Below are positions 10,042-46,945 of a DNA stretch of 64,000 nucleotides, one piece after another. Source of the DNA: a virus. Position 1 is the first letter of the stretch. Each line of letters opens with the position of its first letter. Where the stretch lies: positions 11,885-75,884 of the IMG/VR virus record IMGVR_UViG_3300049927_000072; one strand, written 5' to 3'. The notes under the pieces are model-generated. The model was not told the DNA's origin, ran no database searches, and saw only the letters and a program-made list of their open reading frames with translations. Position numbers and translations under genes: made by a program.

Positions 10042-10301
10042 GCTTTCACCTTGAGCGCTTCGAGGAATTTGCAGCTGGCGACGTGATCCGCGTCCTGCCA
10101 GAAGTGGATACCGCGTTCGGCGACGCTATCATCCTTGGTTTCAATACCAATGGCGACGCCAAGCTCTCGCGGCCTTACGGCTACGCACATAATGTCGGCA
10201 CGACTGCGCCCGTGTCATTGCTTGGCAGTGAGATTTATTCGCTGCCGCTGCGAACGATCCGGGTCTTGCAGCGTGTCGAGAGCGGCGGGAGGCGCGCGTG
10301 A
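10038..10301 (+). CDS. hypothetical early protein
   Basis: ATGA overlap with the previous gene. Confidence 0.6.
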   Translation: MSFHLERFEEFAAGDVIRVLPEVDTAFGDAIILGFNTNGDAKLSRPYGYAHNVGTTAPVSLLGSEIYSLPLRTIRVLQRVESGGRRA

Positions 10302-10519
10302 GTAACCCGGCATTCCAGAAACGTCATTACGAAAAAATCGCTGAGGCAATTCAAGAGGCGCGCGGCGACGCTTGCATCCACACCGCGCAGCATCCCGAAG
10401 CGATCAACGTTGTCGTCAATGAACTGGCCGACGCCTTCGCTCGCGATAATGGACAATTCCAGCGGGGCAGGTTCATCGCGGCTTGCGAATGCGGCGCGAA
10501 CGTGAGAGCGCGGTCATGA
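10298..10519 (+). CDS. small phage protein, RH(Y/F)..IA...LA..F..DN..F...RF..AC family
   Basis: FQKRHYEKIAEAI...LADAFARDNGQFQRGRFIAAC; paralogous to the cargo of 24055..24297. Confidence 0.7.
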   Translation: MSNPAFQKRHYEKIAEAIQEARGDACIHTAQHPEAINVVVNELADAFARDNGQFQRGRFIAACECGANVRARS

Positions 10520-11481: not shown

Positions 11482-11940
11482 ATGGGCACGCGATCTCTGA
11501 CAATCATTATGCACAATAATGACGAGCTTTGCCGCATCTACCGGCAGAATGACGGATACCCATCCGGCCATGGGTACGAACTCGCCGAACTTTGCGACCG
11601 ATTGATTGTCAACGGCTATAGCGGCTCAATGACGAGTGCCGCAGGCAAGAGCTATCCGCGTGAGCAGCAAGCCAACGGCATGGGTTGTCTCGCCGCATCC
11701 GTCATTGCCGGACTGAAGGATGGCATCGGCGGCACCTATATCGAAAGGACCGGCGGCGAGATCAATGATTGGTGCGAGTACATCTACATCGTGCGCGGGA
11801 AAGAGGGCGACATCCCGACTATCGAGTGCACGACGCAGACCGGCCCGTGGCCGTTCAACGCCCAAGAGATCAGCAAGCACATTTTCACACTGCCCGCCGA
11901 TCAGGTAGTCGAGTACGTCAAAAAAATCGGAGCTTTGTGA
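11482..11940 (+). CDS. conserved phage protein (MGTRS...YRQxDGYP family)
   Basis: MGTRSLT...IYRQNDGYPSGHG...NGMGCLAA...EYIYIV; AGGAG RBS. Confidence 0.75.
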   Translation: MGTRSLTIIMHNNDELCRIYRQNDGYPSGHGYELAELCDRLIVNGYSGSMTSAAGKSYPREQQANGMGCLAASVIAGLKDGIGGTYIERTGGEINDWCEYIYIVRGKEGDIPTIECTTQTGPWPFNAQEISKHIFTLPADQVVEYVKKIGAL

Positions 11941-23194: not shown

Positions 23195-23504
23195 TGCGCC
23201 AACAACGGCAGGGAGATTGATATGGAAACAGCTGTGACACCAGCCGAGGCATTGAGGCTGCTTTTAGATCATGTCGATTACACGAAAGATGCGTGTAGTC
23301 TTACGGAAAAGGTCGGCGCTGTTTTGCCGCCAGAGGTTATAAAAATCTGTCACGAAGCATTGTCCGCCGCACTGTGAGGAACAGATGGAAAATTGTGGTC
23401 CGCTAACTTGGTGTCTTCTTTGGCAACTTATTGTGGGGTTTTTATTCTGGCCGACTGTGTTCGCGATAATGGCCGGGATAGCGCGGCTCTTTTACGGTAA
23501 ATGG

Positions 23505-23545
23505 CCGGTTGCGAGTTTTCTGAAACGGCGATAAACACGGCGGCT
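23505..23545 (+). promoter_or_regulatory. late promoter motif CCGGTTGC-N19-TAAAC
   Basis: CCGGTTGC...GAAACGGCGATAAACACGGCGGCT, nearly identical to the copy at 25110. Confidence 0.7.
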
Positions 23546-23568
23546 CAATTCGGGGGGGGGAGACCGCC

Positions 23569-23805
23569 ATGGGTGTATTAAAAGCCAAGTCGCGCAACGC
23601 GCTGCCGTCGAAAGATTTCGGCCTGCCGGATACGCGCCAGTATCCAATTGAGAATAAGGCTCACGCGCGCGATGCACTGGCCCGGGACAGTGAAGAGCTT
23701 GCCAAGGGCAAATTGACCCCGGCACAGGCGGCTCAAATCAGGCACCGGGCCGACGTAGTGCTCGGCGAGACTGACAGCAACTACCACAATCACAGCAAGA
23801 AATAA
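23569..23805 (+). CDS. DUF6582-like capsid-associated small protein
   Basis: RNALPSKDFGLPDTRQYPIENKAHARDALAR. Confidence 0.7.
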   Translation: MGVLKAKSRNALPSKDFGLPDTRQYPIENKAHARDALARDSEELAKGKLTPAQAAQIRHRADVVLGETDSNYHNHSKK

Positions 23806-23833: not shown

Positions 23834-24058
23834 ATGAAAGATGCACAGGGACACGGCAGCGATAGCACTGGCAACCTCGCCCAGACAGGGCGCGGCCCGG
23901 CGGCTCATTCGTCGTTTCTGATCCAGAAATTAAACCCGGCGCTCGTGGGCAACCCGTGGCAGACGGTCGCGCGCATGAAAAACCAAGCGACGGCCGAGCG
24001 TGTCGCGCAGCACATGCGAACCGATGACCGCAGTATAACGAATAGGGTGAGACGATGA
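23834..24058 (+). CDS. MKDAQGHGS-leader protein 1
   Basis: shared leader plus unique cargo. Confidence 0.75.
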   Translation: MKDAQGHGSDSTGNLAQTGRGPAAHSSFLIQKLNPALVGNPWQTVARMKNQATAERVAQHMRTDDRSITNRVRR

Positions 24059-24297
24059 AAGACGCACAGGGACACGGCAGCGAAGGCTCCGGCGCTGCGC
24101 ATCAACGCGGCGTCGAGAAAGCATCGGCCACGATGACGCGCCAGCATTTCGAGATGATCGCGAGTACGCTCGCGAGCAGTGGAGCGAGTGCGGAGATTGT
24201 TAAAAATTTCGCTGACAAACTCGCGGCGACAAATCCGCGATTTGATGCGGCTAGGTTCACCGCTGCGGCATCGAAAAGCTCCGGAGCAAAGAAATGA
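24055..24297 (+). CDS. MKDAQGHGS-leader protein 2 (cargo paralogous to 10298..10519)
   Basis: leader + MTRQHFEMIA...FADKLAATNPRFDAARF. Confidence 0.8.
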   Translation: MKDAQGHGSEGSGAAHQRGVEKASATMTRQHFEMIASTLASSGASAEIVKNFADKLAATNPRFDAARFTAAASKSSGAKK

Positions 24298-24545
24298 AAG
24301 ACGCACAAGGACACGGCAGCGACGGCAGCGGTAGCTTTATGCCGAAGTCTATCAGCGATGCTCGCGCGGCAGCGGCGCTCGCGCAAAATCATCCGAAGTC
24401 CGACACTAGCCCCGTCACCGGACGACTTCCGGGTTCCGGAATTGGCATGAGCGCGAATGCGAGCTTCTCGGCTCCGGCGCGTGGTATGAGTTTCTCCGGC
24501 AACACCGCAGCGATGCTCATGCGTCAGAAGATGACAGGGCGATGA
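24294..24545 (+). CDS. MKDAQGHGS-leader protein 3
   Basis: shared leader, ATGA coupling. Confidence 0.75.
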   Translation: MKDAQGHGSDGSGSFMPKSISDARAAAALAQNHPKSDTSPVTGRLPGSGIGMSANASFSAPARGMSFSGNTAAMLMRQKMTGR

Positions 24546-24895
24546 AAGACGAACGCGGGCACGGTAGCGATGCGCGCGGGGATATGGCTCGTCAAAATCC
24601 GACAGTCGTTTCTATTTCTGCCATACGCCCGTCTCAAGAAAATCTAGCTTGGATTGCAAAAGGATTAGCCGCCGCCGTTGAGGGTGCTAAGGCTGCACAG
24701 GCTGCGTACGGTGGAAAACTTGTTCCGATAGAAACAGGCGTGGATATGTACCGTCAACAAATTCGGTCTGGCGCGTATATTGCCCCGCTCAGCGTTGACA
24801 CGAAAATGAACTTGATCGACGGGCATACTCGGCTATTAGCCTACAAGGCCGAAGGAATTGCAAAAGTGCCGGTACAAGTCGTTCGAGGGAAATAG
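24542..24895 (+). CDS. MKDERGHGS-leader protein 4 with ParB/Srx domain
   Basis: ISAIRPSQ...PLSVD...LIDGHTRLLAYKAEG..KVPV. Confidence 0.8.
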   Translation: MKDERGHGSDARGDMARQNPTVVSISAIRPSQENLAWIAKGLAAAVEGAKAAQAAYGGKLVPIETGVDMYRQQIRSGAYIAPLSVDTKMNLIDGHTRLLAYKAEGIAKVPVQVVRGK

Positions 24896-24898
24896 GTC

Positions 24899-25102
24899 AT
24901 GGCAAAAAGCAAAGGCGGGGCAAACGCAAAGTTTGGTCTCAAGAGCGGCAAAGGTGCACCGAGTTCAACCGTGCAAGTGAAGCCGACATATCAGCACGAT
25001 GTAGTCGAGTGGCTGAAGCAGGAAGCGGATCGCAACGCGCTCGCGGTCAAACTCGGTCGCACAAAGACGAAAAGCAAATTCGCTCCGAAGTCTTCCCTAT
25101 AA
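24899..25102 (+). CDS. small basic protein
   Basis: Lys-rich; directly follows the leader array. Confidence 0.55.
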   Translation: MAKSKGGANAKFGLKSGKGAPSSTVQVKPTYQHDVVEWLKQEADRNALAVKLGRTKTKSKFAPKSSL

Positions 25103-25109
25103 TAAATTG

Positions 25110-25150
25110 CCGGTTGCGGCAATATTGAAACGGCGATAAACACGGCGGCT
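25110..25150 (+). promoter_or_regulatory. late promoter motif
   Basis: CCGGTTGCGG...GAAACGGCGATAAACACGGCGGCT. Confidence 0.7.
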
Positions 25151-25168
25151 TAAATCGGGGGACCGCTC

Positions 25169-25456
25169 ATGAATATCGCACGTTCCGGCGCGCCCAAAGC
25201 GCCGCAGACCGAATTTGCTCCGCGCGACACCATGAAAGACATGACCGAGTATTCGGCCGGTCCGGCGACGCCCGGCTCTGGCCCGGATGCGTCGGCCGCA
25301 AATCCGCTTGAGAGTGAACCTCGCGGGAAGCTTCTGACCAAACAGCCCGGCGCTGTTGGCGCTGCATGGGATATGACGGACGGAGACGGCGACGGCGTCG
25401 ATCCGACTATTGGTGGTGACGTGCTCAAGGAAGGCAAGCTGACAGGACGGCCATAA
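25169..25456 (+). CDS. small disordered late protein
   Basis: GGGGGA RBS; Pro/Gly/Asp-rich. Confidence 0.6.
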   Translation: MNIARSGAPKAPQTEFAPRDTMKDMTEYSAGPATPGSGPDASAANPLESEPRGKLLTKQPGAVGAAWDMTDGDGDGVDPTIGGDVLKEGKLTGRP

Positions 25457-25457
25457 G

Positions 25458-25703
25458 ATGAAAGACGAGCGGGGCCACGGGTCAGACAGTCAAGGGGGCG
25501 CGGGCATATCGCATCAAAGCGCAGTGCAGCGGATCGGTGCAACACTCGGAGCGTTCGCAAAAGATGAAAGCGGTTCCGGCAAAACAGTCGGAGAAGCAGC
25601 CTTCGAGAAAATGCACGACCCGGCGATGATCGCTAACTTAGTCGCCGAACTTGGGTCGCCAGAATTGGCGACCGTTGCGCATCTCGCGCACCTTTTGATT
25701 TAA
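25458..25703 (+). CDS. MKDERGHGS-leader protein 5
   Basis: leader MKDERGHGSDSQG. Confidence 0.75.
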   Translation: MKDERGHGSDSQGGAGISHQSAVQRIGATLGAFAKDESGSGKTVGEAAFEKMHDPAMIANLVAELGSPELATVAHLAHLLI

Positions 25704-25710
25704 CGGGGAG

Positions 25711-25941
25711 ATGAACATGGCGACGAACGTTTACGGATCAGACATGCCAGCCGACAATTGCTACGGCGAGAATGGCTACACCGGCCAGTCGAGCGTAGTG
25801 CCCGGCCAGCCCGCGGTTAGCTGCGATCTCGAAGCGAGCAAAGGGCTCGGCTCCGTTCCCGCCATCTCGCAGACCCGCCAAGTAAGCGCAAAGCCGCTCG
25901 CGACCCGCGTTGGACGCGGCGCGTCGGCTCAGTGGAAATAA
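25711..25941 (+). CDS. small late protein
   Basis: GGGGAG RBS; YGENGYTGQSS motif. Confidence 0.6.
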   Translation: MNMATNVYGSDMPADNCYGENGYTGQSSVVPGQPAVSCDLEASKGLGSVPAISQTRQVSAKPLATRVGRGASAQWK

Positions 25942-26059: not shown

Positions 26060-26749
26060 ATGAGCCGCTCAAGCGATTTGGCGAAAGCGCCCGTGAGCTT
26101 GCGAACGCGCGAGCCGGGCAGACGATATAATCCCAAAACATTGCGGAATGTGGTCAAATGGGCGCGAGAGATGCCCGTCATTCGCGTGATATGCGAGCGC
26201 GCTCGGGTCACCCGTGCTGGTCTAGCCTACTGGATCAAGAAGAGCGCCGCGGGTGAGATTGGGTGTGGTGATGGTTTCGACGTGACTATCAATGGCGAGA
26301 CGCGCCGTTTTCACGATTGGTATTACGATGCGTTCAGCGACGGTGTTGATCGCGTCGAAGAAGCCGCATTCAAACTCGCGAACGGCACGCACATGGAAGC
26401 GCTCTCTTACCGGGGCCGCGTGAATTATCAGGAAGACCCGGACTTGCTCGCGCTCGGCTTCGAAGGGCCGGAAGCGTGGAAGCGAGACAAGAACAATCGT
26501 CCAATACCAGAGGCAATAGCAAAACTCGACCCGGATATGACGCGCTTCATTCTAAAAGCGCATCGGCCGGAACGGTACATCAATACGCAGAAAATAGATG
26601 TAACGCACAAGGGCGGCGTGCTTGTGGTCGGAACGCAAATGAAGCGCGAAGATTTCGAGAAAAAGTTTGTCGGCAAGTCCGGCACCGCAGACGTATTGGA
26701 TGTTGAGTTCGAAGTTGTACCCACTGACGCCCCAGACCCGACGGCCTGA
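26060..26749 (+). CDS. terS: terminase small subunit
   Basis: N-terminal HTH; DRVEEAAFKLA..G; FILKAHRPERY; GGVLVV; directly before terL. Confidence 0.8.
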   Translation: MSRSSDLAKAPVSLRTREPGRRYNPKTLRNVVKWAREMPVIRVICERARVTRAGLAYWIKKSAAGEIGCGDGFDVTINGETRRFHDWYYDAFSDGVDRVEEAAFKLANGTHMEALSYRGRVNYQEDPDLLALGFEGPEAWKRDKNNRPIPEAIAKLDPDMTRFILKAHRPERYINTQKIDVTHKGGVLVVGTQMKREDFEKKFVGKSGTADVLDVEFEVVPTDAPDPTA

Positions 26750-26750
26750 C

Positions 26751-28307
26751 ATGGGTGTGACCGTAGAAAAATGGCGGCTGAAGGATGGTGTGTGGCGGCC
26801 GTGGGTCCGCAACAACGAAGGCGAATTGATTGAAGCCATCTGGGCCGCGCAAGCTGGATCGCAAGACGCATTTCTCTCGTGCCCTACATTCGAAACTCTC
26901 TACTCCGGAACACGTGGACCGGGAAAAACTGACGCGCTCTTGATGGACTTCGCGCAGGATGTCGGCAAAGGCTTCGGCTCTAACTGGGTTGGCATTCTCT
27001 TCCGGCAGTCGCATCCGGCGCTGCGAGACGTGATCGAGAAGAGCAAGCGCTGGTATAAGCAAATCTGGGGCGATGCTGCGTTCTACAATGAGATCAAATT
27101 TTTCTGGGAATGGGATACCGGCGAGCGGTTGTACTTCTCGCACTTTGCGACCATCTCGGACTACGACAAGTACCACGGCCACGCGTACCCGTGGATCGGT
27201 TGGGAAGAATTGACCTCATGGGCCATGCCGGATTGCTATAAGTCTGCATTCTCACTTTGTCGCTCGCCTGTGCCGGGCATCCCGAAGAGGATACGCGCGA
27301 CGACCAACCCGCACGGTGTCGGCCACAACTGGGTCAAGGGTCGTTTCCGGATCATTACAGTATCGCCGGATAAAATCGCAGACCCTGTGATAACGGATGC
27401 GAAAGACGAACAAGGTCGGCCCGAGCCACCGCGTCAAGTAATCTTCGGCTTCCTTGAAGAAAATAAAATCCTGCTACGCGAAGACCCGGAGTATGTCACC
27501 AACCTGCGAACAGCGGCGCGAAGTGAAGCGCAACTGCAAGCGTGGCTTTACGGTTCATGGGACATCGTCGCCGGTGGCATGTTCGACGACATCTGGCACG
27601 GCTACAAGACGGACATCATCGTTGAGAATTTCCAAATACCGCCAGAGTGGCCAATCTATCGCGCGTACGATCACGGAAGCTCGAAGCCGTTTAGCGTCGG
27701 CTGGTATACGGTGAGTGATGGCTCCGATGTCATTGTCAACGGCAAGGTTCGGGCAACTGTGCCGGGCGATCTATTCCGGATCGCCGAATGGTACGGCTGG
27801 CGCGGTGTAGAAAACGAAGGCACGCGCATGCTCGTCGCAGATATCGCGCGCGGAATTATCCAGCGGGAGATCGATTGGGGATGGCGCTCACGCGACGGCA
27901 AGCACGTGCGAGTGAAACGCGGACCGGCGGACACGTCCATATTTGACGAAAACAATGGCGTATGTGTCGCGGATGATTTCGAAAAGCCTGTGTTTATCAA
28001 CGGCATCAAACATCGCGGCGTCGTATGGGAGCGCGCCGATAAAGGCCCCGGCTCACGCGTGCAAGGTTGGGAGCAAGTCCGGCGACGCTTGAAAGCAACG
28101 AAACGGCCGGACGGCGGCATCCGGGAAGTGCCGAGCCTGTTTATCGATGCCAAATGCAAACAATGGCTGCGCACTGTGCCAAATCTGCCGCGAGACGAAG
28201 ATAAGATCGATGATGTGAACACAGAGGCAGAGGATCACGTCGGGGACGAGACACGCTACATGCTGCGCTTCGAGCCAAGAACAATGAAATCGGGGCGCAC
28301 AATCTAA
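26751..28307 (+). CDS. terL: terminase large subunit
   Basis: Walker A GTRGPGKT, Walker B WIGWEE, ATTNPHGVGHNWVK, nuclease motifs YDHGSSKPF and EDHVGDETRY. Confidence 0.95.
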   Translation: MGVTVEKWRLKDGVWRPWVRNNEGELIEAIWAAQAGSQDAFLSCPTFETLYSGTRGPGKTDALLMDFAQDVGKGFGSNWVGILFRQSHPALRDVIEKSKRWYKQIWGDAAFYNEIKFFWEWDTGERLYFSHFATISDYDKYHGHAYPWIGWEELTSWAMPDCYKSAFSLCRSPVPGIPKRIRATTNPHGVGHNWVKGRFRIITVSPDKIADPVITDAKDEQGRPEPPRQVIFGFLEENKILLREDPEYVTNLRTAARSEAQLQAWLYGSWDIVAGGMFDDIWHGYKTDIIVENFQIPPEWPIYRAYDHGSSKPFSVGWYTVSDGSDVIVNGKVRATVPGDLFRIAEWYGWRGVENEGTRMLVADIARGIIQREIDWGWRSRDGKHVRVKRGPADTSIFDENNGVCVADDFEKPVFINGIKHRGVVWERADKGPGSRVQGWEQVRRRLKATKRPDGGIREVPSLFIDAKCKQWLRTVPNLPRDEDKIDDVNTEAEDHVGDETRYMLRFEPRTMKSGRTI

Positions 28308-28363
28308 AGGCCGGTTGCTAATAAAACTGGAACGTGATTTATCGCAAATTCGCGGGGGACACC

Positions 28364-30016
28364 ATGAGCCTTGAAGACAAACATCCGGAATATATCAATC
28401 GCCTAGGTGAATGGATACAAATGGGCGACACCTACGCGGGTGAGCGCGAAATAAAGCGCAAGCGCGTAGACTACCTGCCCCCATGCGAAGGAATGATTGC
28501 GGACGGCATGTCCAATCCGCAGTCTCCCGGCTGGAAAGACTACGAAGCGTATTTGATGCGGGCCGTGTATCCTGACGTGGTCAAGGATGCGGTTAAGGCG
28601 ATGGTCGGCATTATGCACATGCGACCCGCTACGATCACGCTCCCGAAAAAACTGCAAGGCATGTTCACCAAAGCCACCGCTCAGGGCGAGGGCTTGCAAA
28701 TGCTTTTGCGTCGGATCAATGAGGCGCAACTCAAAAACGGTCGCTGCGGATTGCTGGTCGAAGTGCCGACAGGCAAGGACGCGGCGAGTGCGCTCCCGTA
28801 TATCGCGTTCTACGATGCCGAACGCATCACGAATTGGGACGCTGGCCGATATGAAGAGGGCCAGAACGATTTGGAAATGGTTGTGCTCGACGAGAGCGGA
28901 CCATCGCGCAAAGGTTTCACATGGCAGACGGAGCGTAAATTTCGCGTCCTTACGCGCGGGGCTTTGAGCGCTATAAATGCCGACGGAGAATGGCGACCCA
29001 CCGATACCGACGAATACGTGGTCGCAGTGAAAATCAATGAAGTCAACACTCCGACCGCGGGCGATTTTATCACACCACAAATCGCTGGCCGCACACTGAA
29101 AAAAATTCCGTTTGTGTTTATCGGCGCAAACGATCTCGTACCAGAGCCGGAAGTCCCCCCACTAATTGGTCTCAGCAATCTAGCTCTCGCGATCTATCGT
29201 GGCGAGGCTGACTATCGTCAGACCCTGTATTATCAGGGCCAGCAAACGCTCGTTATCATCGGCGGCAACGCTGGTGACACTGACGAGCAAATTCGCACCG
29301 GCAATAAGGGCGTGATCGACCTCAAGCTTGGCGGCGATGCAAAATTCATTGGCGTTTCCGCGACTGGCCTTGGCGAGATGCGTCAAGCGGTCGAGAATGA
29401 CAAGGCCAAAGCCGACAGTATGGGCGTCGCATTCATGGATGTCGGCAATGCGCGCGGCGAGAGTGGCGAAGCTCTCCGTATTCGAGTGGCCGCACGCACC
29501 ACGACAATATCATCGACCAACCAAGCTGCGGGCGCTGGCCTCGAAGCTGCGTTGAAATTCTGCGCGGAGTGGGTCGGAGAAAATCCGGACGAAGTGAAAG
29601 TCGAAGTGCAAACCGACTTCGCGGATCAGAGTGTCGCGGGTGCTGCATTGCTTGCGTTCATGCAGGCGAAGCAACTTGGCTTGCCGCTGTCTCTCAAGTC
29701 GTTACATCGCACTATGAAGGCGAACGACTTGACCGACATGACCTTCGAAGAAGAGAGCGACCAAATCAAGGAAGAAGCCGTGACCGCGGTCGAGGATATG
29801 GCCGATCTCACGCAAGTGGCGAGCGACAATAACTTCCTTGACGAGCCAGCCGACACGACAGATGCGACGGCAGGGAATGTGAAAACCACTCCGCCCATCG
29901 CTCCCGCCGGGCTTATCAAGCCCGGCCAGAGCGTCCCGGTAACCCCGCACGCGCGCGGAACGCCAGTCCCCATGAAAGGCAAAGTCGGCAAAAAAGGTGC
30001 GTCGGCTGGAAAGTAA
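28364..30016 (+). CDS. portal protein (DUF4055 type)
   Basis: follows terL; YEAYLMRA, IPFVFIG...PPLIGLSNL, ESGEALRIR. Confidence 0.9.
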   Translation: MSLEDKHPEYINRLGEWIQMGDTYAGEREIKRKRVDYLPPCEGMIADGMSNPQSPGWKDYEAYLMRAVYPDVVKDAVKAMVGIMHMRPATITLPKKLQGMFTKATAQGEGLQMLLRRINEAQLKNGRCGLLVEVPTGKDAASALPYIAFYDAERITNWDAGRYEEGQNDLEMVVLDESGPSRKGFTWQTERKFRVLTRGALSAINADGEWRPTDTDEYVVAVKINEVNTPTAGDFITPQIAGRTLKKIPFVFIGANDLVPEPEVPPLIGLSNLALAIYRGEADYRQTLYYQGQQTLVIIGGNAGDTDEQIRTGNKGVIDLKLGGDAKFIGVSATGLGEMRQAVENDKAKADSMGVAFMDVGNARGESGEALRIRVAARTTTISSTNQAAGAGLEAALKFCAEWVGENPDEVKVEVQTDFADQSVAGAALLAFMQAKQLGLPLSLKSLHRTMKANDLTDMTFEEESDQIKEEAVTAVEDMADLTQVASDNNFLDEPADTTDATAGNVKTTPPIAPAGLIKPGQSVPVTPHARGTPVPMKGKVGKKGASAGK

Positions 30017-30022
30017 AACATC

Positions 30023-30895
30023 ATGGCCTTCGACCCGGATCAACTCCGAGACGAGCATGGCCAGTGGACGAGCGGGGGAGCTTCAACGCCTGAAAAGGCG
30101 CAAGAGCAAGCCAACCGCGTCGCCGCTGGCGCGAAGCCTATTGAGAGCCTCCCGCAAAAGCCAATCAACATAGGCGGCAAGTGGTACGTGCCGGGACCGA
30201 TAGGTTCGCTGCGCGACGCTGCATCCAAGTACATGGCTGAGAGCAAGCTCGACTACAGTCCGGTCACGAAATATGAAAAGCTCGACGAAGAGCGTGCAAC
30301 CAATATCGCGCAAGCCTTTGAAGAGATGAAAAACGATCCGACCAATCCGGAAGTGAAAGCATCCTACGAAGCAATGGCGCACGAAGTCATGGGCCAATAC
30401 CAAGCGCTCGTGGACAGTGGTGTGAAAGTCGAATGGATCAAGCCGGGCCAACCGGACCCATATGCAGCAACGCCGCGACTTGCTGCGGTGGATGTGAGCG
30501 AAAACAAGCATTGGTGGGGCTTTCCGACCGATCTCGGCTATGGCTCCGGCGATCATACGGACACAAAAGACAATCCGATGCTGCAAAAAGTCGGCATTAA
30601 AATTGACGGGCGCGATGTCGTGCTTAACGACGTGTTTCGCGTCGTGCATGATATGTATGGTCATTTCAAAGAGGGCAACGGTTTTCGCGCCGCAGGCGAA
30701 GATAACGCTTGGCGATCTCACGCCTCGATGTTTTCGGAGAAAGCTTTGCCAGCAATGACCGCGGAAACGCGCGGGCAAAATTCGTGGGTAAATTACGGGC
30801 CATACGGCTCATACAATCGCACGGCGAGCGCGGGAGACACGCATTATGCTCCGCAGAAAATCGGCATCATGCCCAAGTGGACACAGGCGCGATGA
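30023..30895 (+). CDS. putative virion/ejection protein with RDxxGxW leader and HDxxGH domain
   Basis: MAFDPDQLRDEHGQWTSGG; NDVFRVVHDMYGH...GEDNAW..H...ETRGQNSWVN. Confidence 0.65.
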   Translation: MAFDPDQLRDEHGQWTSGGASTPEKAQEQANRVAAGAKPIESLPQKPINIGGKWYVPGPIGSLRDAASKYMAESKLDYSPVTKYEKLDEERATNIAQAFEEMKNDPTNPEVKASYEAMAHEVMGQYQALVDSGVKVEWIKPGQPDPYAATPRLAAVDVSENKHWWGFPTDLGYGSGDHTDTKDNPMLQKVGIKIDGRDVVLNDVFRVVHDMYGHFKEGNGFRAAGEDNAWRSHASMFSEKALPAMTAETRGQNSWVNYGPYGSYNRTASAGDTHYAPQKIGIMPKWTQAR

Positions 30896-31571: not shown

Positions 31572-32432
31572 ATGGCTAAGCTGAAAACCATCTATGAGAC
31601 CGCAGAGGAAATTCCCGAAGGCTTCGCGGACTTGTTCACCGAGCGAAACGGGAAGTTCGAACTAACCGGCATCGAAAACGTCAAAACACAAGGTGACGTT
31701 GACCGAGTGGCCGAAGCTCTCCGTAAAGAAAAGGCCGATCACAAGGCCACCAAAGAGAGCCTTGTAAAATTTCACGGCATCGATCCTGAGACCGTCAATG
31801 CTCAACTCGAAGAGCTTGAGAGCACCAAGACCCAACTCGAAACCCTCACGAAAGGTGGCGCACTCGACGAGGCCAAGCTTGAGCCGATTATCGAGGCTCG
31901 CGTCAAGCGCGCTCTCGGCCCAGTCGAGCGCGAGAAAACTCAGTTGACGCGTGCGCTCGAAGTGTCGAAAAACGAAACCGTAGCTGCACGAACGGAAGTG
32001 GATAAGCTCTCTGGCGTGCTACAGTCTGGCACGATTGAGCGCGCGATCCGCGATGCAGCCATCGCCGCGAAGGTTATCAGCCCTGCCATTGAAGACGCTG
32101 TTATGCAGGGCCTTAGTGTCCTAACTGCCGCCGAAGACGGCGCGATTGTCACCAAGGACAACGTTGCGGGTGTGACCCCGGGCATCAGCGCTGCCGATTG
32201 GCTCAAGGACATGCAGGACAAGCGTCCGCATTGGTGGCCCGTCTCGCAAGGCGGCGGTTCACGCGGCGGCTCGGGCGGCGCGGTTAATCGCGCGGACAAC
32301 CCGTGGACAAAGGAAGGCTGGAACATGACCAAGCAAGGTCAGACGGTGAAAACTCTCGGCGAGGCGAAAGCGAAAGCGATGGCTGAGAGCGTCGGCAGCT
32401 ATATCGGCGCTACCAGCGCGGCGAAAGTCTGA
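31572..32432 (+). CDS. capsid scaffolding protein
   Basis: LKT.YET.EEIPEGF..LFTERNGKF, coiled coil, RPHWWP.SQGGGS, C-terminal NPW....WNMT.QG. Confidence 0.85.
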   Translation: MAKLKTIYETAEEIPEGFADLFTERNGKFELTGIENVKTQGDVDRVAEALRKEKADHKATKESLVKFHGIDPETVNAQLEELESTKTQLETLTKGGALDEAKLEPIIEARVKRALGPVEREKTQLTRALEVSKNETVAARTEVDKLSGVLQSGTIERAIRDAAIAAKVISPAIEDAVMQGLSVLTAAEDGAIVTKDNVAGVTPGISAADWLKDMQDKRPHWWPVSQGGGSRGGSGGAVNRADNPWTKEGWNMTKQGQTVKTLGEAKAKAMAESVGSYIGATSAAKV

Positions 32433-35505: not shown

Positions 35506-36603
35506 ATGACTACCGTCTCCACCACCATTTCTGACGTTATCGTCCCGTCAGTCTTTACGCCCTACACTCAGCAACTTACGATGGAAAAGACTGCTCTTAT
35601 CCAGAGCGGCATCGCTTCGCGCGATGATTTCCTCGACAAGCTGCTCGCGGGCGGGGGCCTGACCTTCACCGTTCCGTCATGGCAGGACATCGGCGATCCC
35701 GCCGAAAACGTGTCCAGCGATGACCCGGACACTCTCTCTACCCCGAACAAGACGCAGGCTTCGGCCGAAGTCGCGGTGCGCCTCTCGCGTAACGCCTCTT
35801 GGAGCACGATGCGTCTCGCCACGGCCCTTGCCGGTGCCGACCCGATGCAGTCAATTGCATCGCGCGTCTCCGACTACTGGGTCCGTCGCCTTCAGCGCGC
35901 CTTCGTGGCGGTTGCTAACGGCGTGTTCGCGGACAACGCTCAAGCCGATCCGACCAATGGTCGCTCTGGCAACGTCGGCCTGACTGCCGCTTATGGCACG
36001 CAGAATGACTTGACGCACTCGATCATCGGTGGCTCGTTCTCCGATGGCGTGACAAACTTCTCGGCTGCGGCGTTCATTGACACCGCAACCCTGCTCGGCG
36101 ACGCGGCCGAAGACGTGACGGCAGTTGTAATGCACTCGGTTGTTTACAGCCGTGCGCAAAAGAACAACCTGATCGACTTCATCCCGGACAGCGAAGGGAA
36201 AATCAACATCCCGACGTTCCTTGGACGGCGCGTGATCGTTGACGACGGCATGCCTAACCCGGCTGGCGACAGCGGAAACGGTGCGCAGACTGCTTCGGGC
36301 ATCTATCACACTTGGCTTGTTGGCCCGGGCGCGTTCCGCCTCGGCGTCGGCACCCCGGTTGTGCCTACCGAAGTGTTCCGCTACCCGGATCGCGGCAACG
36401 GCGCTGGATCGGACATCCTCTATAACCGTGTCGAGTGGTCTATCCACCCGGTCGGCCACGCCTACATCGGAACGCCTTCAACCGAAGGTGGCCCGACGAA
36501 CGCTTCGACGAGCAACAACCTCGCCGCTGCGGCTTCGTGGGTCCGTGTGTTCCCCGAGCGCAAGCAAATCAAGCTTGCTCGGCTAATCACTCGCGAGAGC
36601 TAG
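35506..36603 (+). CDS. major capsid protein
   Basis: TTISDVIVPSVFTPY...LAGGG..F.VPSW.D, LAGADPM.SIASRV.DYW, MHSVVY, IPTFLGRRVIVDDGMP, W.RV..RKQI. Confidence 0.95.
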   Translation: MTTVSTTISDVIVPSVFTPYTQQLTMEKTALIQSGIASRDDFLDKLLAGGGLTFTVPSWQDIGDPAENVSSDDPDTLSTPNKTQASAEVAVRLSRNASWSTMRLATALAGADPMQSIASRVSDYWVRRLQRAFVAVANGVFADNAQADPTNGRSGNVGLTAAYGTQNDLTHSIIGGSFSDGVTNFSAAAFIDTATLLGDAAEDVTAVVMHSVVYSRAQKNNLIDFIPDSEGKINIPTFLGRRVIVDDGMPNPAGDSGNGAQTASGIYHTWLVGPGAFRLGVGTPVVPTEVFRYPDRGNGAGSDILYNRVEWSIHPVGHAYIGTPSTEGGPTNASTSNNLAAAASWVRVFPERKQIKLARLITRES

Positions 36604-41942: not shown

Positions 41943-43871
41943 ATGGCTGGCGCGTTAGATGACATTGTCCAAAAAGTAGTTATCGAAGGTACCGGCGAAG
42001 TCGGCGGCTTGCTCGGCGAGATGGCCGGTATTGCCGAAACGGCATTCGGCCGGATCAGTACCGCTGCGACTTTGCTCAACTCTGCCCTCTCTGGCCCTAT
42101 CGGGATTATTCTGGCGGTTGTCGGCGCGGTCACCGCGCTCGCTGAAGCGACAACGAAATTCGCAGAGAGCCAAGCACGAGCGCAAGTTGCATTGAATGCA
42201 ACAGCGAAAGTTTATGGCGCGACGCGCGACGAGATCGTCGGCTTGCGCGTGGCTCTTTCGCAATCCGGCCTGACGGGCGAAGAGATCAACCGCGGCTTGC
42301 AGCGTATGGCTCGCCAGATGGCGAACTCATGGAGCGAAGTCACGTCGGAAATCCGCAAAGGCCCGACCGCGATGGCGGAAGCGCGCAACGGTATCGAAAG
42401 CGCACAACTCGGCATCGCTACCGCGATGACGAATAATAAGTTTGCCGCGGCTGAATGGGCGAACAAATTAAAAGGTGACGCGCTTTCTGTTGCGGAAGCG
42501 TACAATAAAGTCAAATTTGCCGCAGAGGACGCGGCCTCAACCTCAAACAATGATTTCCTGTCGGTACAGGGTGCGCAACTTGGTGCGAAAGAGGCCGAAA
42601 TCAATTTCCGCAAGTCACAAGGATACGGCGGCTACGAGCAAGACGAAGCTCAGCTAAAAGTCGATAAGGCTGCCAACGCATTTTATCAAGCGCAACAACG
42701 CGTGCAGGATGCGCAGACGAAACAACTCAAGGATATGGCGAACGCTCCAATTGAGCGCCAACGCGCCGAGCTTGGCTTGTCGGAAGCGCAAAATAAACAA
42801 GCGAAAGATCAAGAGAGCGAAGGCCCGGCGATTGCAAAGGCGGCGGTTGATTTCCGCAGCGCAGTGAACGCATTCGAGCAAGCCGTCGAAAAGATGCACG
42901 ACACCGAGCTAAAAGATTTGCCGACTATCATAAACGCCATCAAGGATAAGAATGGCGATGCGCTGCGAGATATGAAGCCGACCGATATTGTTCATGCCAT
43001 CGACGCCCAGACGCGGCAACAGGTGGAGCAACTCGGAAAGGTCGCTACGGATTTAGACCTTTTGAAAGGTCGCGGCGAGGCAGTTAAGAGCTTAGAGGGC
43101 ACGATCAGCGAAGGTCAGATGCAAGGTGTGTTGCAAGCCGGTGGCCTGCCTGCGCGGGGCGGTCAAGCCGCACAGTGGGTGGACGCGATCAAGAACCTTG
43201 GCGAGCGGCTTCCGGAAGCGTTGAAGTTGTCACAGGGTGCGGGCGGCACAGACCAAAATCAGGCGAATGCAGAAAATACATTGAAGATGGTCGCAGCCAC
43301 CGACGAAATGAAATCAACGATGGCACGTCTGGCTGGAACTAGCGACATAGCGTCTGCCACTGCTCAAGCCACGCTCGAAGTGCAGCAAGGTATTTTGATT
43401 GGTGTCAGGGAAGCACCCGCTAAGTTCGCAGAAGCATTGAAAGGTCTACAGACGCCCGTGCAAGGACTGTCGGACGCGGCGGCGGCCGGTGCAGGGCTTG
43501 CGGGCGGCGGTCAGATTTTCGGCGCTGGCACTTCCACGAGCGACAGCATTCCCGCGCGCCTTTCGCACGGTGAATTTGTCGTCAAAGCAGCGGCGGTCAA
43601 GGCTTACGGCGCGGACCTCTTTCACTCGCTCAACAGCATGGCGATCCGCGGCTTCGCGATGGGTGGCCTCGTGCCGGGGCCGGGCATGGCTCCGATCCGT
43701 TTCGCCGATGGCGGAGCGGTCAAAGCTCAGCATTCGGTCGTCAACCTCTCAATCGACGGCAACCGCTTCGAGGGTCTGAAGGCTCCGGCGGATGTCGCGC
43801 AGAAACTAACGTCCTATGCGGTCAGTCGGCAAACTTCGCAGACCGGCCGTCGACCATCATGGGTGAGATAA
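41943..43871 (+). CDS. tape measure protein
   Basis: Ala/Gln-rich helical body; C-terminal GAGTSTSDSIPARLSHGEFVV and FA.GG. Confidence 0.9.
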   Translation: MAGALDDIVQKVVIEGTGEVGGLLGEMAGIAETAFGRISTAATLLNSALSGPIGIILAVVGAVTALAEATTKFAESQARAQVALNATAKVYGATRDEIVGLRVALSQSGLTGEEINRGLQRMARQMANSWSEVTSEIRKGPTAMAEARNGIESAQLGIATAMTNNKFAAAEWANKLKGDALSVAEAYNKVKFAAEDAASTSNNDFLSVQGAQLGAKEAEINFRKSQGYGGYEQDEAQLKVDKAANAFYQAQQRVQDAQTKQLKDMANAPIERQRAELGLSEAQNKQAKDQESEGPAIAKAAVDFRSAVNAFEQAVEKMHDTELKDLPTIINAIKDKNGDALRDMKPTDIVHAIDAQTRQQVEQLGKVATDLDLLKGRGEAVKSLEGTISEGQMQGVLQAGGLPARGGQAAQWVDAIKNLGERLPEALKLSQGAGGTDQNQANAENTLKMVAATDEMKSTMARLAGTSDIASATAQATLEVQQGILIGVREAPAKFAEALKGLQTPVQGLSDAAAAGAGLAGGGQIFGAGTSTSDSIPARLSHGEFVVKAAAVKAYGADLFHSLNSMAIRGFAMGGLVPGPGMAPIRFADGGAVKAQHSVVNLSIDGNRFEGLKAPADVAQKLTSYAVSRQTSQTGRRPSWVR

Positions 43872-43872
43872 C

Positions 43873-44325
43873 ATGCCATTCGAGAACTCACTTCCTTCGG
43901 GAGCAGACACGCTTCTTTCGATCTCCGGCCTCGGAGGTTTCCAATATCAGGCTCGCGGCCTGATCCAAACGCTGTCGCCGATCAAGCAATCATCGCAACT
44001 CGCACGCACAGTCAATGCCTTGCTGATCGACATGAGTGCGCCGCAGTTTCAGAAATACTCGTCGAAGATTTCATGCACCGACGTGAATGCTCCGCCGCTC
44101 GATGGTGTGTGGCCGGGATTAGAAGTAACAGTGCATTGCGCAGCTTCGCTTTGCTATCCAATCGGAGGATCAGCCGGGCGCACCGAAGTGAGCGGATCAA
44201 GCTCTACCGAAGGTCACATGACGTTCTATCGTCCGGTGCTCTTGATGCGCGTTGTGAACTTCGAGCAACACTTCGATGAGTGGAAGGCGGCGAATGGTTG
44301 GGATTTGGAATTAGAGGAAGTCTGA
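43873..44325 (+). CDS. distal tail protein
   Basis: ARGLIQTL.PI...RTVN..L.D.S..QF.KY; follows the tape measure gene. Confidence 0.65.
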   Translation: MPFENSLPSGADTLLSISGLGGFQYQARGLIQTLSPIKQSSQLARTVNALLIDMSAPQFQKYSSKISCTDVNAPPLDGVWPGLEVTVHCAASLCYPIGGSAGRTEVSGSSSTEGHMTFYRPVLLMRVVNFEQHFDEWKAANGWDLELEEV

Positions 44326-44326
44326 C

Positions 44327-46945
44327 GTGGCAAGCCCGCAATTCCCATTTTATTTTGCGTGGGTCAACTCCACGGAAACAACGTTCGGTCCCGAACATGA
44401 GATCGTGGACGAGAACGTGATTTCGTTTGACCTCAAGCACGACGAGGGACAGTACCCGACGTGTGAGATCACTGTCAAAAATCCGCGCGTCGGCTTACTC
44501 GCCCCCGGACGAAAAGTTTGGGCGTGGCTTTCATGGCAAGGGCCGTCAAGTGTCGTGCCGCTTTTCTTCGGCGTGCTTGTCGGCATTCCGCAGAACATTT
44601 TCGCCGAAAGCGTTACTCTGAAATTTATCGCGCAACCGGAGAACTACATCGAGCAGCGGCAAGCAATCGCCGAGACGATGAAAGTTCGGCCGTTCTATGA
44701 TCCGGTATTTACTGACGAGCGGCATCGCGATGATCCGGACACAGTTCTCGAAGGCTGGTCATCGCTGTGGCATGTGGACCGCACGACACTCGTGACCACT
44801 GCGAGTGACATCCTTGTCGGCGAAGACGGCACAATCGATTTCCCGAGCGATATTGTCCTATACGACAGCTTGCAGATGCAACTCTCGCAACCGCCGCTCA
44901 GCATGGTCGAGGTCAAGGCCCGCGTGAATTGGACGCAGCGCCAGAGCGGCTACGTCGATATGGGTCAGTATAATTTTGTCTCCTACACTGGCGAGACGAT
45001 CATGTCGGACTGGCCGAAGCCCGGCCACGGGCTTGGCAGCGGCTGGCGCGTTGAGAGTAGCTTCGTGGTGGATGTGTATGCGGTTGCGCAAACGCCGACA
45101 GCGCAGTCACACGGCGACTGGCACAATAGCAGCGAGAACAAACTGCAATGCACTCCTGATAGTTCGAACTTCTCCGCCTCTTGGCCAGCGCTTCTATCTC
45201 CGAACAGCATTCAAGCGACGCTCACGAGCCAATGGCAGACCGGAATTTGCGATCCGTTCTCTGATCCGCAAACCAATCGGCCCGCGTCCGTCCACGACAC
45301 GGGCGTTATCATTCCGCTGTGGTACATCTCGGCGAATATGTTGCTGCGCTACGATGCGAAGCGTCAGCGCACGGAAGAGCTTTATTTCGTCGTCACCACG
45401 GATCAGCAAGCGGTGTTGACATCTCCGACAATCGAGCAGCGCACGGAAGTGATCTCAATCCAAGGTGCGGATGTAGGTGAGCCGCTCTTCGACCCGCTCG
45501 CGTGGTCTGATTTCACCGAAGAGGCTGTCGGCATCGGACAAGTTATTTTCCCGAACGATCCGACAACGGTCGGCGGTAAGAGTTATCAGATTTGCGTGGT
45601 TGCCGGAGTGGCTGGCTCAATCGAACCGGCATTTAGCGACATCGTCGGCGTTGTAACTATCGATGGCACTGTGCACTGGGCGAGCATGGGTGAAACACCA
45701 CTCACGACGCAGCCCGACTGGTCGCCCGCTTCACCCGTACCATTCGGCGAGGTTATCTGTTTCAAAGAAGTGGTGTTCAATCCGGCGACGGCAACGCTCG
45801 AAGATGTAGCAAATTCGACAAGTTATTATATCTGCACCGCGGCGGGCACGACGAACTCGACTTACACGACCATCAACTACGTGCCGCCGCCGTTCACGAG
45901 CAACGACGCTCCGCAGCCTGTGGCGCATTTCACCTATATCCCGCGTCCGGCATTTTCACCAAACGCGGGCACGCAGATTGTTGACGGCTCTGTCACGTGG
46001 ACTGTGCTCGGTGCTGCCCCGGCGCTTCTTGGTATTCCAATCGGCGGCACGGCAGAGAATGTCCCGGCACGTGCATATTTCCCGACAGACCGCGGCCTGT
46101 GGAGCGTCGAACATCTTATTTGCAAAGCGCGGGCACTTCTGCGGCACCGCTCGCGCGCGGTTACGATCTCGTTCGAAGTACCATTCCCGGAAGCGATTGA
46201 TCTCTCGTGTCGGCTTAGCGGAACCATCCATGATGACCGCCTGCCCGGTGGCGTCGCCACTGGCAAGATCATCGCCTACGATATGAAATGCAATGGTCAG
46301 ACTGGCGAATACTGTGGACACATAACGATTGGTTGCGCGGTTGGCCGTGGCGGATCGGCCGCCGCGGTCGACGGTGCTGGCGTCTATGCTTCTCCGGGCT
46401 ACACGCTGCCCGGCTATCAAATCATGGAAGGCGAAATGCCGACGCTCGGTGACATCTCCTACTCGAAGCCGGTATTTGCGCCCGATGACGATGGCCTCTC
46501 GTTCCCGCTCACGAAAGGCCAGATCATAATTTCAGAGAACGTCAATGGCGACGCGAACAGCCAAGCTGAAGCGATCAATGCTGCGATCCCGGCCTCGCAA
46601 ATGCTCGCGAGCGGCGCGAGCGATGATATGGGCTTTTCTCTCATACCTTCGGGTGGCACGGGCGGCAGTCGCAGCTTCGCAGGTGGCAGCGGCACGGCGG
46701 ATTTCACCGGTTTAACGACGCATGGCGGCATCGTCGGCGGCGGGCCGTCCGGCGCGTGGGCGCTTGAGCAGTCGCAACGATATTGGACGGCGTTCGCAAT
46801 CCCTGCGGTCATGGAAGCGAATGCGGTGTGGTATGAACTCGTTCTCAAGCCGGTGCAGAACGGGCCGTTCTCTGCGGAGTATACGATCAACGTTTCCCCG
46901 CTCAGCATTCCGCAAGGGATTAACTTAGAGGCTCCGTCGCTATGA
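44327..46945 (+). CDS. tail tip/baseplate hub protein
   Basis: large protein; two DG(T/S)V.W carbohydrate-binding-like motifs. Confidence 0.7.
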   Translation: MASPQFPFYFAWVNSTETTFGPEHEIVDENVISFDLKHDEGQYPTCEITVKNPRVGLLAPGRKVWAWLSWQGPSSVVPLFFGVLVGIPQNIFAESVTLKFIAQPENYIEQRQAIAETMKVRPFYDPVFTDERHRDDPDTVLEGWSSLWHVDRTTLVTTASDILVGEDGTIDFPSDIVLYDSLQMQLSQPPLSMVEVKARVNWTQRQSGYVDMGQYNFVSYTGETIMSDWPKPGHGLGSGWRVESSFVVDVYAVAQTPTAQSHGDWHNSSENKLQCTPDSSNFSASWPALLSPNSIQATLTSQWQTGICDPFSDPQTNRPASVHDTGVIIPLWYISANMLLRYDAKRQRTEELYFVVTTDQQAVLTSPTIEQRTEVISIQGADVGEPLFDPLAWSDFTEEAVGIGQVIFPNDPTTVGGKSYQICVVAGVAGSIEPAFSDIVGVVTIDGTVHWASMGETPLTTQPDWSPASPVPFGEVICFKEVVFNPATATLEDVANSTSYYICTAAGTTNSTYTTINYVPPPFTSNDAPQPVAHFTYIPRPAFSPNAGTQIVDGSVTWTVLGAAPALLGIPIGGTAENVPARAYFPTDRGLWSVEHLICKARALLRHRSRAVTISFEVPFPEAIDLSCRLSGTIHDDRLPGGVATGKIIAYDMKCNGQTGEYCGHITIGCAVGRGGSAAAVDGAGVYASPGYTLPGYQIMEGEMPTLGDISYSKPVFAPDDDGLSFPLTKGQIIISENVNGDANSQAEAINAAIPASQMLASGASDDMGFSLIPSGGTGGSRSFAGGSGTADFTGLTTHGGIVGGGPSGAWALEQSQRYWTAFAIPAVMEANAVWYELVLKPVQNGPFSAEYTINVSPLSIPQGINLEAPSL

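Follow-up and report, generated by a model that had tools for sequence, protein, structure and literature searches.

A conserved N-terminal peptide on unrelated small proteins of uncultured SPP1-like phages: a candidate label for loading proteins into the phage head

In a 64-kb stretch of viral DNA (the window: positions 11,885 to 75,884 of the 75.9-kb IMG/VR virus record IMGVR_UViG_3300049927_000072), five small genes situated upstream of the terminase genes encode proteins that begin with nearly the same peptide and then diverge. We propose that this peptide, henceforth the tag, might be a portable label for proteins that are kept inside the virion and injected into the next host. It would be an analogue of the capsid-targeting sequence (CTS) of phage T4, unrelated to it in sequence and, in the window phage, working without a protease. 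We lean towards this reading with confidence a little above even. It draws on the fixed position and conservation of the peptide, on the diversity of the proteins that carry it and on the placement of their genes beside those for packaging and for the head.

The tag and its cargos

The sequence-only reading of the window had noticed open reading frames (ORFs) at 23834, 24055, 24294, 24542 and 25458 that start with MKD[AE][QR]GHGS[DE] and then diverge. All five are present, and divergence sets in after approximately residue 13. If the peptide is back-translated into a DNA pattern (ATGAARGAYNNNNNNGGNCAYGGNWSNGA), exactly five matches are found in 64 kb, all of them at these start codons, and none in 100 shuffles. 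Six-frame translation of the window contains GHGS preceded by MKD nowhere except in the five genes. Approximately 55 related viral loci provide 189 distinct copies with the consensus MKDAxGHGS[DEN]xRGG, all of them directly behind a translation start: the start codon stands at -1 in 152 copies and at -2 in the other 37, which begin with MA, MP, MG or MS. Residues K2, D3, G6, H7, G8 and S9 are invariant across the 189 copies, while the cargos, i.e. the sequences behind the tag, diverge completely.

Scanning of IMG/VR with the same DNA pattern identified 45 loci, in which a single contig holds at most 8 exact copies. If the peptide is relaxed to [KR]DxxGHGS, so that MAKD, MPKD and GTG starts are counted as well, the arrays grow to as many as 10-11 genes per contig. 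When a profile comprising the tag and the second motif described below was compared with 1.84 billion protein cluster representatives, 340 clusters were found at E<=1e-3. Among the best 150 matches, 146 extend from residue 1, and the lengths range from 29 to 256 aa, except for one protein of 664 aa.

It had been claimed that selection acts on the peptide, and we can uphold this. The synonymous variation among the five window copies is real (GAT/GAC, CAG/CAA, GGA/GGG/GGC, GGC/GGT/GGG, AGC/TCA), although the first three of them are nearly identical in DNA. Over 188 distinct sequence contexts, the first and second codon positions are fixed and the third is almost free, close to random, with serine encoded by both AGC and TCN; selection therefore operates on the peptide. 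Upstream of the tag, conservation is limited to the Shine-Dalgarno sequence and the ATG. One might suppose instead that the nucleic acid matters, as a recombination linker for cassette exchange or as an element of translation initiation or coupling, and that the peptide is incidental. The near-identity of the first three window copies would agree with this, as would the ATGA overlap with the upstream ORF in 86 of 183 copies and the general tendency of AAA or AAG as second codon to favour initiation. The random third positions, the two types of serine codons and the short upstream conservation speak against it, and so do copies of the motif inside long ORFs (see below), where initiation is irrelevant; we regard this explanation as barely credible. 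Within the window, three ATGA stop/start overlaps join the first four genes; the fifth gene is separated from a TAA stop by a 1-base gap.

A weak second motif behind the tag, suspected in three of the five proteins, proved to be real and general. It reads AH[QSA]xGVxx[VI]G(Q/R)P, usually occupies residues 10-17, sometimes starts 30-90 residues in, and its core AH[QSA]xGVxx[VI]G is present in about 40% of tagged proteins of related phages. In 44 of 50 distinct occurrences it lies downstream of a tag in the same ORF.

The tag is not always paired with the same cargo. BLAST clustering of 323 distinct tagged proteins yields 127 clusters, 96 of them singletons. Among 150 representatives we recognized four ADP-ribosyltransferases (ARTs) of the ART-PolyVal type, one Arr-type ART, approximately four GNATs, one ParB_N and one DUF6098 domain, and an HNH domain occurs as cargo in the locus set. 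About nine tenths of the cargos have no recognizable domain, and for this reason the suggestion that they are anti-defence proteins is a guess for most of them. The remainder of the original idea, exchangeable cargos behind a portable tag linked to head genes, fits all tests that could be computed.

Two cargos are more informative. The protein encoded at 24542 had been assigned a ParB/Srx domain, in agreement with its matches to PHROG ParB-like families (4e-6). Its cargo family is among the largest (24 members) and has (I/L)xDGHHR as a motif in its alignment. Structure prediction with AlphaFold2 gave a model of mean pLDDT 81.7, which Foldseek places closest to the ParB-N domain of pNOB8 (5k5d, 2e-5), followed by sulfiredoxin, Noc and ParB; a PDB search with the sequence of the protein gave no match. 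Residues 1-20, tag included, have no secondary structure and pLDDT of about 60. As modelled, then, the cargo is a ParB-N/sulfiredoxin (Srx) fold preceded by an unstructured tag. The cargo encoded at 24055 belongs to a two-helix family, RRHFExIA...TTNPgFrR, and its suspected kinship with the early-region protein 10298 is confirmed by a profile of tagged relatives, which matches the two at 1e-16 and 1e-10, respectively; pairwise BLASTP between them gives nothing, and the link is made through the family profile alone. The 10298 protein carries no tag and begins exactly at the domain core. The tag and the second motif therefore constitute an add-on module.

This observation bears on the simple alternative of an ordinary, fast-evolving family of paralogs, in which the N-terminal segment would be the sole recognizable remnant and would have no addressing function. 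Tandem arrangement of the genes is what such a family would produce, and tag variants tend to be alike within one genome (MKDAQ/MKDER in the window, MAKDAL in L017, GHGSN in L083 and L084). Divergence from one ancestor does not lead to unrelated folds such as ParB/Srx, GNAT, ART and HNH, however, nor does it explain why an untagged paralog starts precisely where the added module ends. We consider common descent of this kind very improbable.

Tagged proteins are also distinguished by their composition. Cysteine is absent from 166 of 168 of them (0.05% Cys), compared with 0.99% on average over 34 likely genes of the window, and pI exceeds 8 in 94%. Relatives of the 10298 protein that carry the tag have no cysteine, unlike that protein itself (Table 1). 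The scaffold, the major capsid protein, the post-portal protein and the putative tape measure encoded in the window are Cys-free as well. Such scarcity fits proteins that pass narrow channels or leave the cytoplasm.

Gene neighbourhood and the head module

The window phage has an SPP1-like head, with a phrog_145 portal, a phrog_206 scaffold and a Gp13-like capsid protein. Although the record is estimated to be only 71% complete, the head module falls inside the window. The large terminase subunit is 52-55% identical to the terminases of Roseobacter phage RDJL3, Pseudomonas phage Ab18(-like) and Bordetella phage MW2.

Gene order is the same in every member of the clade with enough sequence: g22561, a DUF6582-like gene, the tag array, a conserved gene which we call X95, sometimes a further tagged gene, a small clade-specific gene (Y76) and terS, followed by terL, the portal gene, variable post-portal genes, the scaffold gene and the capsid gene. 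As to the DUF6582-like gene, the Pfam match from which its name derives (PF20223) scores 17.1 bits, below the cut-off of 27.3 (E 0.007), whereas membership in phrog_16160 is clear (Table 1). Distant relatives (TerL <=56% identity) possess neither tags nor X95, Y76 or the DUF6582-like gene; unlike the tag-bearing window phage, where no MuF was detected, they keep it at full length. Outside this scheme, L044 has a single tagged gene upstream of a MuF gene, L015 has one approximately 1 kb from a portal gene of another family (phrog_146), and in L003, L019 and L022 tagged genes lie between tail genes (L003:120-783; L019:439-819; L022:985). For two of these contigs, the flanking genes are homologues of 43873-44325 and 44327-46945, which belong to the tail tip and follow the tape measure gene.

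A 59-nt promoter-like element precedes the DUF6582-like gene and again X95. Similar elements precede the portal gene, the virion gene 34569, the capsid gene, 38992 and 48817. In the form CC(G)GTTGC-N17-GATAAA/TAAGGA, the element is found at window positions 23505, 25110, 28311, 34512, 35337, 38995 and 48775 (all on the + strand), often directly after a TAA stop codon, and other clade members have kept the motif in front of the corresponding homologous genes. Its strong form stands in front of late or structural genes, the early region having only weaker CCAGTTGT variants. This distribution supports a presumed co-regulation of the array with structural genes. The sequence-only reading had placed the array behind late promoters; the array does share promoter-like elements with head and tail genes, and their distribution suggests late timing.

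The portal carries a C-terminal extension (portal residues ~490-560, window 29800-30013) in which an acidic FLD stretch and a Pro-rich linker lead to a conserved basic end. Its pattern is ...FLD...NVPVTPH.RGSPVPLK.KVGKKGASAGK, the basic end being the part from RGSPVPLK onwards. All 17 portals of the tag-bearing clade have it and none of four outgroup portals does. The extension is one candidate receptor for the tag. Complex prediction for the portal with the tag peptide, run without controls, returned a score of 0.00, which carries no weight in either direction.

The motif at polyprotein joints and the possible function of the tag

The single long protein among the best 150 profile matches (P0138, 664 aa; a Logan-only record with no relative in IMG/VR) contains an XkdF-type putative prohead serine protease domain (PF14550, 2e-15). 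Behind this domain there are three internal tags; (V/L)MFDD(L/I)I stands before each of them, and after each comes a segment rich in His and Ala, helical by appearance. P0161, likewise an XkdF-protease polyprotein, has three internal tags at module joints, and the XkdF polyprotein P0162 has one class A tag together with an HDAKGRF motif. In P0174 (1143 aa), where a 2H phosphoesterase, ART-PolyVal with XkdF and an ATLF-like peptidase are chained, NPYHDxxGRF occurs between the recognizable domains, at residues 202, 570 and 871. HDxxGRF motifs were noted at joints of the XkdF/ART polyproteins P0166 and P0170, in addition to P0162 and P0174.

A related leader, M[AT]FDPxE[PA]RDxHG[RQ]W[TG]SGG, starts every post-portal gene of the clade, with cargos of 53-752 aa. 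Besides the window gene at 30023-30895, it is carried by L012:7461, L032:8838, L038:8162, L043:3727(-), L081:13517 and 14398, L083:13492, L084:9165, and L085:11836 and 13012. Further, three small neighbours upstream of the MuF gene in L044 (86-1788) start with MNENHDPK[ST]G[QE]FSSG in two cases and MKDAKGHGS in one, and all continue with PRQHP.AS..AH; leader types have therefore been swapped on related bodies. Both leader classes fit [KR]D-x-[KH]-G-x-[GWF]-[ST] and interchange at gene starts and polyprotein joints. Word-index searches confined to the 40 residues of the tag retrieved 5 proteins for class A (the tag) and 1 for class B (the second leader), too few to be informative.

How should the internal copies be understood? 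In the simplest case, the motif would only mark joints for processing: a protease of head maturation, XkdF for instance, would cut or recognize it, or it would serve as a flexible linker, and it would have no role in targeting. N-terminal copies would then be leftovers of split polyproteins, or sites for an unrecognized peptidase of phage or host. This explanation has several observations on its side. In P0138, P0161 and P0162 the internal copies fall precisely at the borders of modules and immediately behind the XkdF domain; HDxxGRF separates the modules of P0174; and the motif is hydrophilic and Gly-rich. One internal copy even retains its Met (IKMKDAQGHGSN), which interconversion of array genes and polyproteins would predict. 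Nevertheless, no protease is detectable in the SPP1-like clade, where a relic would decay, yet six residues stay invariant over 189 copies. Moreover, removal of nine residues from a free N-terminus is pointless unless these residues acted beforehand. We therefore think it unlikely that processing is the whole function of the motif. With six core residues invariant and no protease at hand, a docking or address function at the free N-terminus is the most economical reading.

The address might also be read outside the virion. The tag could be a short linear motif by which many effectors dock, inside the cell, to one conserved protein of the host (for example a chaperone, protease or hub protein), regardless of whether they are packaged. 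Two observations agree with this: phages whose portals belong to different families (phrog_145 in the window, phrog_146 in L015) have the tag in highly conserved form, as suits a receptor other than a fast-evolving phage protein, and arrays carry other short conserved motifs (ALAQGHPKS, WSDEAR). A host factor leaves unexplained, however, the strict N-terminal position, the use of the motif at joints of head-protease polyproteins, the fixed placement beside packaging and head genes and the near-total loss of cysteine. We find it still less likely than a pure processing signal.

Returning to the tag as a loading label, a close precedent is known from T4, where the first 10 residues of CTS suffice to load foreign proteins into the head (PMC9026906; PMC3012670). 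CTS terminates in L/I-x-E, the site for gp21 protease, and in this myovirus it acts via the gp22 scaffold core (PMC9026906). As in IPI, IPII, IPIII and Alt of T4, a peptide of about ten residues at the extreme N-terminus is common to unrelated, mostly basic small proteins; gene content varies between related phages and the cargos include an ADP-ribosyltransferase. The two peptides are unrelated in sequence, in contrast (MKTYQEFIAE in T4, MKDAKGHGSD here), and ours has no L/I-x-E. It belongs to a phage with an SPP1-like head, in which no protease for its removal was detected; the arrays, with up to 11 genes, are far larger, and behind the tag there is often a second motif. The motif may be compared with CTS in one more respect, namely that it could combine the roles of address and module delimiter where a protease is present, as CTS does (PMC9026906).

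Another likeness is to polyvalent and MuF-toxin effectors (Iyer et al. 2017, PMC5512222; Jamet et al. 2017, PMC5576092): ART-PolyVal, GNAT, ParB/Srx, 2H and metallopeptidase domains recur, and the domain types that PMC5512222 describes for phage polyvalent proteins with predicted packaging include ARTs, GNATs and DdrB-like ParB. The late/head gene neighbourhood, with synteny of terS, terL and the portal gene, is also shared, and the tags at joints of P0138, P0161 and P0162 and the related motif of P0174 link our proteins to those of the polyvalent type. In the polyvalent and MuF systems, effectors are chained covalently or fused to a MuF/portal anchor, whereas in the window they are separate single-module genes (74-117 aa) with tags of their own. 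No motif of the KDAxGHGS type is described in the passages of PMC5512222 that were searched.

Cargo-loading peptides of encapsulins may present a third parallel. They are short, unstructured and terminal, and direct diverse cargo into a shell of HK97 fold; usually they are C-terminal, hydrophobic or Gly-rich, and they bind to the inner face of the shell protein.

We suggest the following model. The users of the tag would be a clade of uncultured SPP1-like siphophages from soil, probably infecting Hyphomicrobiales and other Alphaproteobacteria. An unstructured N-terminal address, often combined with the second motif, would be placed on many unrelated small proteins. These would be made together with structural proteins, loaded into the capsid and delivered with DNA to the next host. 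Loading presumably requires docking to a component of the procapsid, for which there are three candidates: the scaffold, the capsid protein on its inner face, and the C-terminal portal tail specific to the clade. In phages with XkdF protease, the motif would mark processing points of polyproteins as well; in the protease-less window phage the modules would instead be translated separately. The cargos, ParB/Srx in the window and ARTs or GNATs elsewhere, might then act early in the next infection.

Several points weigh against this model. Firstly, the tag is very hydrophilic and Gly-rich, which would suit a linker or a site recognized by an enzyme better than a docking peptide of the typical, amphipathic kind. 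Its position at polyprotein joints, moreover, is explained equally well by a pure processing site. Secondly, neither a prohead protease of the S77, S78, XkdF or S49 type (PF03420, PF04586, PF14550, PF01343) nor a Phage_Mu_F (MuF) domain was detected in the 75.9-kb record. Consequently, the tag cannot act in the window phage through a recognizable maturation protease, and "load, then clip" in the manner of T4 is not simply transferable to it; to judge from its sequence, the window phage has no visible machinery for the T4 mechanism of scaffold core and clipping. Thirdly, the background for Cys content and charge is rough, and disordered proteins are typically Cys-poor, too. Fourthly, the co-occurrence of the tag with the portal tail, X95 and Y76 comes from a single clade and is one evolutionary event. 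The promoter-like element resembles sigma-70-type host promoters of the alphaproteobacterial type, so that late timing is inferred from distribution. Finally, no cultured phage with a virion proteome carries the tag, and encapsidation is what we infer from the evidence above.

A broader proposal can also be formulated: KDAxGHGS and [RH]DxxG[RKQ][WF] together might be a general, protease-independent code of tailed phages with the meaning "module start, load me". Modules bearing the code would be encapsidated and injected, and in the clade docking to the portal tail or another part of the procapsid would have replaced the MuF anchor. We find this doubtful, though worth stating: if it held, injected effectors could be predicted from sequence and foreign proteins could be loaded into SPP1-like heads by a tag of 10-30 residues. 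Already the narrower reading, if true, would have consequences. To our knowledge, injected proteins beyond those of T4-like, P1-like, N4-like and jumbo phages are very few. Hundreds of small soil-phage proteins would become candidate injected effectors, recognizable by a nine-residue signature. It would mean that an SPP1-like siphophage loads proteins with neither maturation protease nor MuF, and delivery in laboratory strains would profit from a short tag that brings proteins into siphophage heads. Further, the connection between gene arrays and polyprotein joints suggests how phages might switch between chained and separate effectors.

Occurrence outside the clade and further features of the region

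Neither Pfam nor PHROG contains a family covering the tag, and no paper describing it was found in the literature searched. The tag is widespread and new to the family libraries and papers searched. Among cultured phages, blastn with the region gave no match, and tblastn with a tagged protein gave homologues of the cargo only, all of them untagged. A search of sequencing runs listed one DNA run, a soil metagenome that is probably the sample of origin, and no RNA run. Pattern scanning of 596 Gb of prokaryotic genomes gave 27 matches, near the chance expectation of approximately 35 by our own estimate; five of them are true tags, on 4 contigs of three metagenome-assembled genomes (MAGs) of Hyphomicrobiales or other Alphaproteobacteria. 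Two tagged ORFs, L057:1474 and L062:6377(-), are located on large contigs (1.96 Mb and 469 kb) of one alphaproteobacterial MAG. Their cargos contain long poly-Gly/Ser runs, and a scaffold homologue lies near the L062 copy; these ORFs may be prophage remnants or domesticated copies.

Table 1. Positions in the window of the features discussed
Feature	Position	Strand	Description
Untagged early-region paralog of the 24055 cargo	10298..10519	+	begins at domain core; 3 Cys in 73 aa
Promoter-like element, copy 1	23498..23556	+	CCGGTTGC-N17-GATAAA; precedes DUF6582-like gene and array
Array-opening gene, conserved in whole clade	23569..23805	+	phrog_16160 at 5e-19; weak DUF6582 match
Tagged gene 1	23834..24058	+	74 aa, pI 11.6, no Cys; tag MKDAQGHGSD; cargo in 10-member "GNPWQ" family of tagged proteins
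Tagged gene 2	24055..24297	+	80 aa; tag MKDAQGHGSE and second motif (AAHQRGVEKA); two-helix family "RRHFExIA...TTNPgF"
Tagged gene 3	24294..24545	+	83 aa; tag MKDAQGHGSD; cargo looks low-complexity; short motif "ALAQNHPKS"
Tagged gene 4	24542..24895	+	117 aa; tag MKDERGHGSD; single predicted ParB-N/sulfiredoxin-fold domain, DGHxR motif
Untagged small ORF inside array	24899..25102	+	67 aa, basic, Cys-free
Promoter-like element, copy 2	25103..25161	+	precedes X95, tagged gene 5, Y76 and terS; 85% identical to copy 1
X95	25169..25456	+	conserved acidic protein, looks disordered; closes main array in all clade members with sequence there
Tagged gene 5	25458..25703	+	81 aa, acidic; tag MKDERGHGSD and second motif (ISHQSAVQRIG)
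Y76	25711..25941	+	conserved small clade-specific protein; between last tagged gene and terS
Small terminase subunit, probable (terS)	26060..26749	+	phrog_4044 at 6e-5; position upstream of terL
Large terminase subunit (terL)	26667..28307	+	identity to terminases of named phages
Portal	28334..30016	+	phrog_145; clade-specific C-terminal extension of ~70-90 aa, end = HARGTPVPMKGKVGKKGASAGK
Post-portal protein	30023..30895	+	290 aa; second, related N-terminal leader MAFDPDQLRDEHGQWTSGG; no Cys
Scaffold	31572..32432		phrog_206; no Cys
Major capsid protein	35506..36603		Gp13-like; no Cys
Putative tape measure	41943..43871		642 aa; no Cys

X95 and Y76 (Table 1) are clade-specific, look disordered and are always situated between the array and terS; each might be an adaptor, a chaperone or an internal protein. 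We considered X95 as a carrier of internal tag copies (GMKDQT, WGMKDANGQGV) and rejected it, as the tag profile gives these segments at most 4 bits while shuffled sequences reach up to 5.5. ESM Atlas look-ups for the proteins encoded at 25458 and 23834 returned scores that were all below 0.9.

Other short motifs recur in the arrays. A(L/Q)(A/G)QGHPKSxxxP(I/L)HP is found in small array genes, both tagged and untagged: in the window at 24294-24545, and at L040:8106, L033:4056, L083:5473, L013:779 and L030:5718 (strand-oriented positions). On some array genes, the GHGS tag is replaced by the start M(A)WSDEAR.AS (L035 and L085, at ~6059 in both, and L040:7015, again strand-oriented). The second motif (AHQTGVNQIGRP) comes next in L035 and L085, which suggests that M(A)WSDEAR.AS is a third interchangeable leader.

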